Positions 230 to 6,200 of a stretch of 64,000 bases of DNA are shown piece after piece; the stretch's first letter is position 1, and each line of letters opens with the position of its first letter. The notes beneath the pieces were generated by a model. The model had not been told where the DNA came from and did no database searches. It was given only the letters and a program-made list of their open reading frames with translations. The translations under genes were made by a program, and so were the position numbers. Source of the DNA: Saccostrea cucullata. Lineage: Eukaryota. Location: contig NW_026938938.1 in assembly GCF_032062105.1 (NCBI RefSeq), positions 744,001 to 808,000 on the forward strand, in the 5' to 3' direction.

Positions 230-3200
230 GAGCTGCTGGGTATTTTTCTCTGTGGTCTGCCGAGTACAAATAGGACTGAGTCATGTACAAATGGTATCTG
301 TAAGGCAGGGGAATCAGTGGTCAGTGTATGACATGTATCTGTCTCTTTGTAAGAAATTTGTAGTCTCTTTGTAAGAAATTTGTAATCTCTCTATAAAGGC
401 ATGTATACATACTTGTATGGGTTAAAACTCTGAGACTGCTCTACATTTCTAGGTCCCTCTACTGTTGGATTGACAAATTTTTGCAGTTTCACTTTCTTTG
501 GTTTAGGAAGTTCAGAGTCTTCAGTCCTCTTTCTTTTTCTGCTCTGTTTCCTCTCGGTTTGTTCATGAGCTTGGGGTTGATGATGTGATAATTTTGATTT
601 CTTTGATTTTTTCAGACTGCCTATCAAAACAAATTTATTTACATTTATACTGTTACACCTGTAATTTATAAAAATTCATGTATGTATATTTTTTTTTTAC
701 TTAAGAACCACTGTACAGGCCCAAAATCTAAGCCATCAAACTTCTTTTAATTTTGTTGAAAATATGATAACTCTTGCAAAAATCCATTTAGTTTCTTACT
801 CTTTCGAACTTTCATAGCAAACTTATTTCTTCGCTTTGTGCCCTTGGACACTGAAATTCCACCTGTAGACTTTACTTTGACAAATATTGGAATACCTGTG
901 GGATAAATGGGAAGCATGGAATGGAAGCTTGCAACTGATATTGCACTCAATTTAAAATGGTTGTTCTGTTGATGTTTCACACTTTCATTGGTTTAAAGAT
1001 AAAATGTGACTGTCAACTATATTTCTTTGTCTGTCATCAACATTGTTTTTTAAGACTAGTTTTGATCACAGCTTCTAGCTTACCTGTAACTTGGATGTAG
1101 CAAGATTCACCACACAATGTAAATATAGCTGTCTCTTCTAACAGAGCTCTCATCCACACATCACCAATACTACACAAATACAGGATATTCAAAGATTAGG
1201 ATCTTGCATGATTAACAAGAGGCCCAAGGGCCTTGAATCGCTCTTCTGATAAATTGTACAATCTATCACTTCTATTTGAAGCCTCTTACTCTAAGGACTC
1301 AAGATGCATTAATTGACAAAGATTGATGGTTCTAAGCCAATAAGTACCTCAAATATTAAAGTAGGTCACTGTGACCTTCTTATGGTTGACATTCTCCGAG
1401 GACCAAAGATGCATCAACTATCAGAGTTTGATGATTCTACGCTAATAAGTACCAGAGATAAATACTTAAGGATACACCAAAGGTTTCCAAAGGGCAAAAT
1501 TTAATTTGCTTGTAATTCTTTCATTAACAAAGATAACATATTAAAAGTATAAATCATTTGAAAGCTTCTTAATTTTACTATTTAATGATCTTAATTTAAA
1601 TTTTCATTTTCATCGTATTTAAAAGTTATTAATATTTTAATGTAAATATTAGTGCATTCATATTTTATAAATCAACTTTTTTGTATTCCACCTCTCAAAG
1701 TCAAAATTTTGCCTCAATGTAGAATAAAGATTGAATTTTAAAACCGTATCTCAGATTTTTGATAAATCTTCTTATTCAAAAGTTACATCCATCTGTCTTT
1801 CAATGTTACCAATTTATTAGCCCAATTCTACATTTCCCCCAATAATTCGAGAACTGAGCAAGATATCAAAAATCTGAGATACGGTTTTGTGAACAAACAT
1901 TTTAGACACAATCTAGCCAGTTTTCAGAGAAATTGGTCAATAAATAAGGGAGCTGAATCCTTTGAAATAATACCACCAACTGTCTGATCTTACTTTACAG
2001 TAGAGGGCAAAAACCCATTACACAACAAAGTCTGCCAAAGCTAGAAATATATGACACCTTGGAGATTCAGCTTTGGATACCTGTCACTTATCCATATTTC
2101 CTATGCATATTCACAAGAATGGGAGGTTCTATTCTTTATTTAGGTGCTTTTAATGAAGTAAAATAGGTTCAATTCTGAGTCAGAAAGATTTCCCGGCAAA
2201 ATGGCAAGAGCTAAGCTCCACCTCCTATTTCATGGTCATTAGTGACCTGTTACATCTCCTTCCCTAAATCTAGAGTCCCTGTAGTTTAATTACTGATAAC
2301 TTCTGTGTGGCTAGTGAAGAATTCCCCAAGTGGTCACAGTGATTTATTGCTCCTTTCAGTAGCAGGCAGTTACAGACCAAATCAGAAGCTTCAATAACGG
2401 CACATTCACATGTGTTAGTGTTTATGTTTGATTATTGTTAAATAATTAGAAAACCATTCAATAATCAGCAAGAATTTTTCATGCATTATAAAGCAGTGAT
2501 TAGCATTGTTTTCTTAGCCAAAAATCTCAAAATTGACAAAAATCTTGAAAAAAGCCTTTGGTGTATCCTTAAATAAAGCAATAAAATGTCAAAAATAGGT
2601 CACTGTGACTTACTTTTTGGTCGACATTTTCCGAGGACCCAAGATGCATCAACTGACAATGTTTGATGATTCTAAGCCAATAACTATCTGAGATAATCAA
2701 AAGTAGGTCACTGTGACCTTGTTTTTGGTCGACATTCTCCGAAAACCCAAGGTGCCTCAACTGACAACGTTTGATAATTCTAGGCCAAAAACTACCTAAG
2801 ATATAACCATAAAGTGTCAAAACTAGGTCACAGTGACCTACTTTTTGGTCGAACATTCTCCGAAAAACCAAGTTGCATCAAATGACAAAGTTTTGATAAT
2901 TCTAAGCCAAAAAGTACCTAAGATACTTAAATATAGCCATAAAATGTCAAAAGTAGGTCACCATGACCTCCTTTTTGGTCAACATTTTCAGAGGGCCCAA
3001 GATGCATCAACTGACAATGTTTCATGATTCTAAGCCAATAAGAACCTGAGATAATCAAAAGTAGGTCATTGTGACCTACTTTTTGGTCGACATTCTCCGA
3101 AAACCCAAGATGCCTTAACTGACAACGTTTGACAATTCTAGGCCAATAAGTACCCAGGATAAGTAAATATAGCCATAAAATTCAAAACAGGTCACAGTAA

Positions 3201-6200
3201 CCTACTTTTTGGTTGACATGTTCCGAAAACCCAAGTTGCATCAACTGACAAAGTTTGAAGATTTTTAACAAAAAAATACCAAAGATACATAAATATAGTC
3301 ATAAAATGTCAAAAGTAGGTCACCATGACCTACTTTTTGGTCGACATTCTCCGAAAACCCAAGTTGTATCAACTGACAAAGTTTGATGATTCTAAGCCAA
3401 AAAGTACCTAAGATACTGAAATATAGCCATAAAATGTCAAAACTAGGTCACAGTGACCTACTCTTTGGTCGACATTCTCCGAAAACCCAAGTTGTATCAA
3501 CTGACAAAGTTTGATGATTATAAGCCAAAAAGTACCTAAGATACTTAAATATAGCCATAAAATGTCAAAAGTAGGTCACCGTGACCTACTTTTTGGTCGA
3601 CATTTTCCGAAGACCCAAGATGCATCAACTGACAAAGTTTGATGATCATACGTCTGAAAGTATTCAAAATATGCCTTTTAAACAATTTGAAAACAAATGC
3701 CTGCAAAATTCAAAAAGTAGGTCACAGTGACCTACTTTTTCATAAATATGTTTTAAGGCCCCAAGATGCATCAGCTTACAAGATTTGGTGAAGCTAAACC
3801 TCTCAGTATCTGAAATAATGGGATTAAATGTTTTAGAAAAGATAAGCCATAACATTCTTAAGGTAGGTCAAGGTGAACTACTTTAAAGTTGATACTGTCC
3901 GAGGTTCCAAGATGTGTCAATTGACAAAGTTTGATGATCATAGGCCTTAAAGTGTCCAAAATATGCCTCCAAATCAATCTGAAAACAAAAGCCCGTAAAA
4001 TTTAAAAAGTAGGTCACCGTGACCTACTTTTGTGTTAACATGATGTGAAGTCCTAAGATGCATCAACTTACAAGATTTGATGATCCTAGTCTTTATAGTA
4101 AGCAAAATATCAACGTTTTTATTAAGTGTAAATTTTGGTTAACTTTGAAGTGACCTTGAGACCACGCCCTTTGCCCCAGGGTCATGCCTTGAACAATTTT
4201 TAATCTTCAACATATCCTGAACCTTGTATGCAAGTTTGGTGAAAATCTGCCAGGTGGTTTGGAGAAGAAGATTTTTTAGCAACCAGTACTTTTGGTTCTA
4301 TTTTCCTGATTATCTCCCCTTGTTTTAGGGTCCCAACCCTAGTTTTAGTATAAATGGTAGCCCTTGGGCCAAGGATACCCTGTAACAAATTTGACAATGA
4401 TTGGCGAAGGGGTTCTTGAGTTATGGCCCATATTCTAAAAAGTTAACGCACACCGCACGACGCACACCGCACAAATGGCCATAGCATTAGATCTTTGAGC
4501 CTTTGGCTCAGAAGAGCTAATAACTGTTTAGGATATTTTTATGGTAGATCTGTATGCTAAATTTCTTTTCTATATATTAAACTCTGCAAAGAAAATGAAG
4601 GGAAACTGCAAATAACTGGAATTTTTCCATGTCCAAGGGACATAACTCTGTCCAAAATAGATCGATTGTACCAAAACCCCAAACCTTTGGCCATGAAATT
4701 CACAATTTTGAAAGAGACAGCCTTATTTAACAAAACTATGTACATGTACTTGGTTAGTTTATTTGATACCCAGGAGCAGAGAGGAAGATTTTCAAAGAAA
4801 TAATGCATTTTCACTATATAATCTATTTAGCCCCGCCCTAGCGCTAGAACCCCGACCCTGGGGCCATGAATTTCACAATTTTGGTAGAGTACTCAATGCT
4901 GATTACAATCATGCCAACAGTTTGACTGCTTGATGTCTATGAGTAAAGAAGAAGATTTTTAAAGATTGCATTAATTTTACAGGTTTGGCCCCACCTCTTA
5001 AGCCCCAAGGGGGCAAGGCCCATGAAATTCATAATTTCTGTTCCCCTTCACCCATAGATTCTTTGTGCCAAAATTGGTTGAAATTGGTTGAGCAGTTGCA
5101 GAGAACAAGCTGAAAATGTTCAAATGTTAACACACGATGCATGACGCCGGATATAAACAGATAGCAATAGGTCACCCGAGTGACTCAGGTGACCTAAAAA
5201 TCAGAGAACCAGATAGGGATACAATTAAGTTAGGAGGATACTGAGATCATTTAATTTTACCATTGATGTAGCTTTTTCCACACCCCTTGATGTAATAAGT
5301 TGACACTGGAGTTAGGATGTCTGTATTCTATGTTGGTGAAACAGGAAACCTGAGCATCTGGGTCATCAGACATCTACCAAAAACAAATATCATAATTTAA
5401 ATTAATGTAATTTTGCTAAATCTTATTCACCAAAAAAATATTTCACAAGATTTTGAAATGTTGATGAAATACTTTTATCTTTGCTGTAACTATTTTGGAC
5501 AGTTAACTTTGCTATAACTATTTTGAACAGTTGGTGCTATAGGGTTTTCAATATTACCGTGTATTCTTTATGACAAGACCTCTTCCTTAATAACAATGTT
5601 TTTACCAAATAATCTTAACCTTGACCTACTTTTGAAAAACTTTGACCTTTGCCATTTTTCTGAATGGTTGGTGCTAGCTTTCATATTTCTTAAATAGTCC
5701 TTTTGACAAGACATTTCTTTGGGTACCATCAATGTTTAAGATTTGGAGTTGATTTTAACCTAGGTCTTGGGCTGGCTTATAGGAATATCAGTGTTTCACA
5801 AACACATCTTGATAACCATTAAAAGGATCATCAAAGAATGAAATTCTTACTATTCCAAGAAATTCTTACCATTCCAAACCCCAGGGTTAAGACATTACTC
5901 TCACCTTGACGCATCAATTTCTGAAAAAAAAGATATTCTCTCATTGACACATGTATTTTAAACACCTGTATAGTAATTTTCATCCTGTATTTTAGCCCTG
6001 TTGCAGAATGTCACATAACTTTCATCTTTTACTTTTCTTCCAATGTCATTACAAACATATCATTTTCTGTGCAAATTTTTGCGATTTTTCTTCTATCATA
6101 TTAAAGTTTTCACAAAATTAATAGTTATATTTAAGATAAAGTTGGCAGATGACATATATTTTTTTGCATCAACTTTGGAAATCCTTCATGTAGGACATAC

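Follow-up and report, generated by a model that had tools for sequence, protein, structure and literature searches.

Estrogen-response-element arrays in TERT intron 4 of Saccostrea cucullata: standard cargo of a common rolling-circle transposon, very probably selected for the element itself

Introduction

The window analysed here, a stretch of 64,000 nucleotides of Saccostrea cucullata DNA (NCBI RefSeq assembly GCF_032062105.1, contig NW_026938938.1, positions 744,001 to 808,000 of the forward strand), contains the N-terminal exons of the telomerase gene TERT, whose intron 4 harbours ten perfect copies of the estrogen-response element (ERE), AGGTCA-N3-TGACCT. These copies are carried by a non-autonomous Helentron (HINE), and the locus hence raises the question whether they act on telomerase, as a mobile enhancer for the estrogen receptor (ER) or the estrogen-related receptor (ERR) as proposed in the initial annotation, or whether they serve the transposon. 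Half-site variants shared between copies are nearly nil and private ones arise at the background rate, which places selection on the propagating lineages of the element. Very probably, selection on the sites serves the element, and the insertion in TERT is a passenger.

The sites and their carrier

Perfect AGGTCA-N3-TGACCT sites are located at positions 1363, 2705, 2825, 2955, 3063, 3317, 3445, 3573, 3719 and 4011, and sites with one mismatch at 2597, 3189 and 3865, which reproduces every coordinate and spacer initially annotated, as compared to 0.00 perfect and 0.16 one-mismatch sites expected in shuffled sequence. The motif, an AGGTCA inverted repeat with a 3-bp spacer, is indeed the consensus ERE. 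All 13 sites reside within one element extending from 1214 to ~4520, whose parts are as follows.

1214..4520, minus strand: non-autonomous Helentron (HINE), with ends common to copies that have unrelated flanks; standard 5' end at the 4520 side
1217..1235, unstranded: HINE 3' terminal palindrome
1240..1249, unstranded: subterminal inverted repeat, partner at 4508-4517
1363..1377, unstranded: perfect AGGTCA-N3-TGACCT of the first full monomer
1470..2568, unstranded: nested non-coding element with 14-bp terminal inverted repeats (TIRs) starting GG and a TTAA target duplication
2588..4092, unstranded: central tandem array with monomers of 108, 120-130 and 146 bp and one core each (9 perfect, 3 one-mismatch)
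4446..4472, unstranded: HINE microsatellite-like tract
4489..4518, unstranded: 5' subterminal inverted repeat (subTIR) and internal inverted repeat (hairpin)

The assignment of the carrier to the HINEs holds, since the element fits this class on every feature tested, namely the subTIR pair, terminal palindrome, internal inverted repeat, microsatellite, T-rich target without target duplication, non-coding content and dispersal. The subTIR pair is perfect over 10 bp (1240-1249 / 4508-4517), the published range being 11-15 bp, and the longest open reading frame starting with Met comprises 95 amino acids, so that the element is non-coding. Its A-rich ends on the plus strand correspond to a T-rich target, and none of 48 full copies has a common flanking 6-mer, hence no target duplication. 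The 5' end was recognised in 69 and the 3' end in 66 of 88 copies with unrelated flanks, and the read depth jumps at 1214. Most copies are ~2.0-2.2 kb long; the copy in TERT reaches 3.3 kb because of the nested 1,099-bp TIR element, which we take to be Kolobok-like and which splits the first monomer, explaining the 1.2 kb gap between the sites at 1363 and 2597. In the HINE family of the TERT copy the palindrome is longer than the 15-mer, with arms of ~13 bp. The monomer periods, 108, 128 and 146 bp, rise in steps of about two helical turns, a spacing that would hold the sites near one face of the DNA.

Abundance of the element

An exact 20-base marker outside the motif identified at least 855 dispersed HINE copies, and the 1.17-Gb genome contains 18,516 perfect 15-bp sites versus 108 for the reversed control, although these site counts are somewhat inflated because the assembly holds duplicates (an ERR exon in three places and two duplicated elements). 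All 50 listed sites of these 18,516 fall in HINE copies, and the perfect sites not flanked by T, 1,547 in number, belong among those listed mostly to another HINE family, C. When a similar pattern was counted by spacing, ~16,000 genome matches were obtained for a spacing of 3, as compared to 30-36 for spacings of 4-6 and 211-222 for spacings of 0-2, with the listed matches of the latter coming mainly from a separate TIR element. A few transposon families appear to be the source of nearly all perfect EREs in the genome.

Given this abundance, a typical ERE count and a divergence near the median, the TERT copy is an ordinary one. Elements carry a median of 9 perfect sites, with 10 or more found in 25 of the 67 copies whose left end is in view, and the TERT copy diverges by 1.8% versus a median of 1.3%. 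Private half-site changes amount to 1/48 in the TERT copy versus 10/395 elsewhere, a comparison of low power that involves a single copy. The chance of a 21-kb gene harbouring one HINE copy is 1.5-3.4%.

Selection on the half-sites

Landed and propagating copies can be told apart by comparing private (singleton) with shared substitutions. The sample comprised 86 copies (87 of the first 100 listed plus the window copy minus two duplicates), of which 68, orthologous to each other in the last four monomers, were used. Across the 48 half-site columns 35 singletons were seen versus 30.4 expected from base-matched columns, and rare half-site variants numbered 49 versus 53 expected. Purifying selection on the half-sites after insertion was thus not detected family-wide in these 68 copies, with the singleton test being blind to one co-opted copy. 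A different picture emerges for shared variants: the ratio of shared to singleton substitutions is 1:35 in the half-sites, versus 143:247 in the remaining monomer (p=4.4e-6) and 57:180 in the element outside its repeats (p=0.002). The HINE terminus exhibits the same pattern, with 0 shared substitutions and 28 singletons in its terminal 39 columns.

Comparisons of the monomers lead in the same direction. In a tree of 823 of the 955 monomers, lineage changes per column amount to 0.92 in the half-sites versus 5.39 elsewhere (p=8e-5), and both half-sites rank within the four least-changed 6-mers. Among the four positional monomers all 12 half-site columns are identical versus 49 of 89 other columns (p ~8e-4). 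Half-sites are therefore better conserved than the remaining monomer, as required of a functional motif in the initial annotation, and selection works on propagating copies and not on landed ones. The option that had been left open there, that the palindrome is maintained for transposition, is the one favoured by this pattern of shared versus private mutations.

Sequence, structure and related families

Several features distinguish a site read as sequence from one that folds. Compensatory half-site changes are confined to 3 cells over six pairs among the 823 monomers, with none between families, and in the monomer tree the inner flank positions vary, whereas the outer positions are retained. 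HINE families B and C differ from the TERT-copy family in their terminal repeats, spacers and flanks, with only 42-56% identity in the latter; together they keep 11 of 12 half-site columns versus 26 of 111 elsewhere, a conservation biased upward by the motif search through which both were found. Predicted hairpin energies range from -3.7 to -11.4 across families, with ~-11 kcal/mol in the TERT-copy family and -3.7 to -5.5 in the others. The scarcity of compensatory changes, the spacer length fixed at 3 and the free flanks favour the reading that a sequence-specific dimeric protein would recognise AGGTCA-N3-TGACCT, rather than a hairpin. Since families with unrelated subTIRs have the site in common, this putative binder would be a host receptor and not a transposase. 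A role of the hairpin only and self-repair of the palindrome were both rejected owing to the near absence of compensatory changes.

A motif-free survey of homologous families, covering 727 kb of loci, was dominated by the TERT-copy family and revealed half-site-only, direct-repeat and motif-less relatives as well. Judged from these sequences, the hexamer is the wider constant and the ERE geometry is the form taken by the TERT-copy branch. Several individual relatives were observed. A family with only the left AGGTCA, 108/146-bp monomers and an A/T-rich flank occurs at 45353-47150, 51695-51992 and 53610-54090 of the window and at a further locus (L001:4129). A HINE resembling CL6 at 52200-53085 has 146-bp monomers with half-sites of the TCAAGGTCA type in everted and direct arrangement, and family C (loci L098-L108, L195-L197) has the ERE of its last monomer flanked by TCAAGGTCA/TAAAGGTCA. 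A HINE terminal hairpin has collapsed to a perfect ERE at locus L180, which suggests one way in which the motif may have arisen. Outside the HINEs, a ~870-bp TIR element with TTAA targets and at least 254 copies contains AGGTCA-N1-TGACCT ~95 bp from one end (L110-L114, L117, L148-L177).

The spacer

The initial annotation had contrasted conserved half-sites with a variable 3-nt spacer. Half-sites are conserved and spacer letters do differ, but the spacer is no more variable than the other CpG sites of the monomer: column identities of the spacer are 0.83, 0.44 and 0.79, and those of the other CpG sites 0.51-0.62. As CCG, CGG and the triplets that arise from them by one step of CpG decay account for 648 of 816 spacers, spacer variation constitutes weak evidence and was dismissed as a mark of receptor specificity. 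Inversion of the spacer loop was likewise discarded, being unneeded, since nearly all variants in orthologous monomers are one or two single changes off the consensus. Spacer length is 3 in 642 of 646 cases, and it is this length and not the letters that carries the information.

Candidate receptors

The genome encodes an ER-type DNA-binding exon, comprising the first zinc finger only, with best matches to AncSR1 and ER, and likewise an ERR-type first zinc-finger exon. The latter was seen at three places (L015, L016, L017), two of them on one contig in opposite orientation, which indicates duplication or assembly redundancy. As initially annotated, a mollusc ER binds the ERE and is ligand-independent: the snail ER is reported to bind GGTCAnnnTGACC, the consensus ERE, without ligand (PMC3778743), and the oyster ER to be a constitutive, ligand-independent activator (PMC3886901). 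The part of the claim that concerns ERR is weakened, even though both exon types are encoded, because the snail ERR apparently does not bind the ERE, given as "data not shown" in that source (PMC3778743). NR1D, NR1F and NR3A are among the oyster nuclear receptors listed in PMC4070562, and nothing on ER in eggs was found in the accessible portion of PMC5041327.

The flanks of the monomer bear on the identity of the receptor as well. Positions -1 and -4 accumulated 4 lineage changes in 4 columns and position -2 accumulated 12 in 2 columns. With T at -1 and A at -4 fixed and -2 free, the flanks of the TERT-copy family presumably match the extended half-site of the ROR/Rev-erb type; such a flank fits the TERT-copy family and families B and D but not C, and in the TIR element a shared variant disrupts it on the left side.

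Evaluation of the explanations

The explanation best supported by the data is that a common rolling-circle transposon landed in TERT intron 4, bringing along ten sites as the standard core of its monomers, and that these sites probably aid the mobilisation of the element. Provided that selection acts at the level of the element, the binder is probably a host nuclear receptor, as judged by the sharing of the site across families. In such a scheme a host nuclear receptor, for instance the ligand-independent mollusc ER, would dock on the ~9-11 sites of each element and open germ-line chromatin, the partner Rep/helicase could then reach the element ends more often, and damage to the sites would lower the number of descendants of a copy. 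We lean, if only slightly, towards this full sequence of events, in which arrays would recruit a host nuclear receptor, suggested by the geometry of the site to be ER, and the opened germ-line chromatin would lead to more copying by Rep/helicase. The insertion in TERT may bind receptor incidentally. A wider proposal is tentative and rather doubtful: that a superfamily of animal Helentrons may license its own transposition via host nuclear receptors, and that in this oyster lineage it might have hijacked a constitutive ER with arrays of about ten perfect EREs, generated almost every one of the ~18,500 perfect EREs and thereby set the receptor binding landscape and the free receptor concentration.

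Several observations weigh against element-level selection of an ER site. The sampled copies come from first-listed contigs and not from a random draw, 18 of the 86 were dropped for identity below 89%, and the search bias described above for families B and C acts in favour of conservation. Tip changes in the tree are fewer in the half-sites (12.0 vs 23.1 per column), which we ascribe to homoplasy among variable columns, although a weak constraint on landed copies may also contribute; likewise, half-site singletons lie below the rate of the terminus (35 vs 47.6, P=0.035). The full ERE is not essential, since a homologous HINE family at 45353-47150 was still amplified though its right half-site is lost, a single base is altered in one monomer of family C, and in ~20 of 86 copies one monomer has lost its core through a common deletion. 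The inverted site with a 1-bp spacer in the ~870-bp TIR element, although in the top 4% of windows, yielded a shared to singleton ratio of 0:9 vs 90:315 that is not significant in 26 of 30 copies (p=0.22). Finally, given flanks that fit the ROR/Rev-erb-type extension, the receptor may be other than ER.

Among the alternatives, the one deserving most attention, though improbable on balance, is that the palindrome serves the element's own replication, as an internal Rep/helicase site or as a single-strand hairpin formed during rolling-circle replication or monomer duplication, with its likeness to the ERE being coincidental. The constraint on the half-sites equals in pattern that of the termini, the ~13-bp arms and the predicted hairpin of ~-11 kcal/mol suit such a role, a related HINE terminus (5167-5197; Cg_HINE_4 subTIR in the supplement of PMC7492417) opens with the same hexamer, and one such terminus has collapsed to a perfect ERE (L180). 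However, compensatory changes are almost nil, pairing is broken at the inner flanks while the outer flanks are kept, families with unrelated subTIRs and weak hairpins (-3.7 to -5.5) have the site in common, and a TIR element from a different class has a comparable site, although one without significant constraint (p=0.22). Much less probable is an absence of any selection on the motif, with few master copies combined with locally reduced mutation or repair driven by the palindrome. It would agree with the few independent lineage events behind shared variants and with the lower tip changes of half-sites; yet the half-site singleton rate matches that of the rest, so that no mutational cold spot exists, repair from arm to arm would yield compensatory pairs, of which nearly none were seen, and four long-diverged monomers have kept all 12 columns (p ~8e-4).

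Very unlikely, too, is the co-option of the TERT copy as an ER/ERR enhancer of telomerase. An enhancer could be envisaged with ten perfect sites 4.1-6.8 kb downstream of the predicted TERT start codon and an ER-type gene encoded, with ER sites at human TERT (PMC4999838), with EREs in repeats that can serve as enhancers (PMC2853111) and with Helitron-borne heat-shock elements (HSEs) that rewire worm genes (PMC6927752). However, the human ER sites are upstream promoter sites and not in intron 4, ERE count, divergence and private half-site changes of the TERT copy are ordinary, its array is interrupted by the nested element, and hundreds of genes are expected to hold such an array by chance. In a contig from a related organism the flank is matched as far as 1213, after which 28 different letters follow; as one contig at the left junction, this is a weak hint of an empty site. 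The special link to telomerase put forward in the initial annotation does not withstand at least 855 near-identical copies, an ordinary site count and landed half-sites that decay neutrally, and a TERT-specific enhancer was rejected on these grounds. A host-selected genome-wide receptor sink or regulatory network is just as unlikely: 18,516 perfect 15-bp sites in 1.17 Gb, compared with 2,310 perfect 13-bp core sites in human (PMC2853111), might suggest one, but counts are somewhat inflated by assembly duplicates and landed copies lose their sites at the background rate, so that any sink would be a by-product.

Element-level selection, with the TERT copy as a passenger, bears on the job of the ligand-independent mollusc ER and makes two aspects testable, the dependence of a rolling-circle transposon on a host receptor to move and the dominance of repeats in binding maps of the oyster ER. 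The link to telomerase is most likely incidental.

The TERT gene and other features of the window

TERT lies on the minus strand, and PF12009 (RNA-binding domain) and a reverse transcriptase exon adjoin the window on its left side, the latter matching solved TERT structures (E 2e-11). Five N-terminal exons can be joined in frame with GT-AG ends, with exon edges that are not fixed, as alternative nearby splice choices likewise keep the frame open. Exon 5 aligns to positions 109-137 of Pfam TEN_TERT as a weak match below the cut-off (E 0.005) and has no PDB match, and exons 2 and 4 queried singly gave no database match. Spliced contigs from a public run leave out 893-1080 and 298-412, with splice-type ends. 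Based on the in-frame joins, the spliced contigs and the TEN_TERT match, the location in "TERT intron 4" is borne out when coding exons only are counted.

8034..8128, minus strand: TERT exon 1 with predicted start codon; in-frame GT-AG join
6205..6322, minus strand: TERT exon 2 (predicted); in-frame GT-AG join, no Pfam match singly
5870..5920, minus strand: TERT exon 3 (predicted); in-frame GT-AG join
5261..5373, minus strand: TERT exon 4 (predicted); in-frame GT-AG join, no database match singly
1170..5260, minus strand: TERT intron 4, numbered by coding exons; exon joins, spliced contigs, TEN_TERT match
1080..1169, minus strand: TERT exon 5 (TEN domain); Pfam TEN_TERT E 0.005, spliced contig

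Further HINE remnants occupy TERT introns 4 and 3 (4575-5200 and 5521-5812), and the HINE terminus at 5167-5197 starts and finishes with the AGGTCA hexamer, as in Cg_HINE_4. Downstream of TERT, an open reverse-transcriptase frame of 482 amino acids on the minus strand (L002:1563-3008) is likely a non-LTR retrotransposon. Elsewhere, the window contains a multi-exon gene at 23200-32300 (minus strand) whose exons encode Kunitz and thyroglobulin type-1 domains and, in one case, probably a transmembrane segment, a small gene at 20186-21400 (plus strand) with calcium-binding EGF domain exons, and minisatellites at 25838-26427 (37-bp) and 41690-43690 (36-bp) without receptor-type sites.

Comparison with known systems

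In architecture, the TERT copy resembles the Cg_HINE elements of Crassostrea gigas (PMC7492417) and HINE/DINE-1 (PMC4067079), with which it shares the subTIR pair, internal inverted repeat, microsatellite and terminal palindrome, a central satellite-like array in fixed orientation, a T-rich target and no target duplication; its neighbours in the window resemble C. gigas CL6, CL7 and Cg_HINE_4 (PMC7492417). Unlike in Cg_HINE, monomers of 108, 128 and 146 bp occupy specific positions in its array, and its core words have 0 matches in the CL1-13 array table of PMC7492417. The available portion of the Cg_HINE account does not mention receptor sites, and in the open-licence literature no paper was found tying these repeats to EREs or nuclear receptors, the supplement of a five-oyster satellitome study (PMC11136912) lying outside that scope. 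Where EREs lie in mollusc genomes, and how widely, has been stated to be unknown (PMC3778743).

EREs within interspersed repeats are known from human Alu and MIR, where C(A/T)G spacers are common (PMC2853111), as they are in the oyster (294/816). According to that study, the human sites are mostly imperfect, number one or two per element and respond to a ligand-dependent ER, with 51 of the 2,310 perfect core EREs bound in its set, whereas the oyster HINE has ~9 perfect sites per element, in the family consensus, and a constitutive ER. The closest parallel is provided by the Helitron HSE clusters of Caenorhabditis (PMC6927752), in which dense clusters of a host factor's site, and most of its copies in the genome, likewise come from a rolling-circle element, and whose authors speculate that the sites first aided the mobilisation of the element itself. 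In that system binding and effects on genes were established by chromatin immunoprecipitation and RNA-seq, while the oyster HINE is known from sequence alone; in turn, the oyster element carries a nuclear-receptor site and offers population-level evidence for selection on propagating copies. The array belongs to a known kind, the transposon-borne array of factor-binding sites, and it comes with evidence that selection on such sites serves the element itself.

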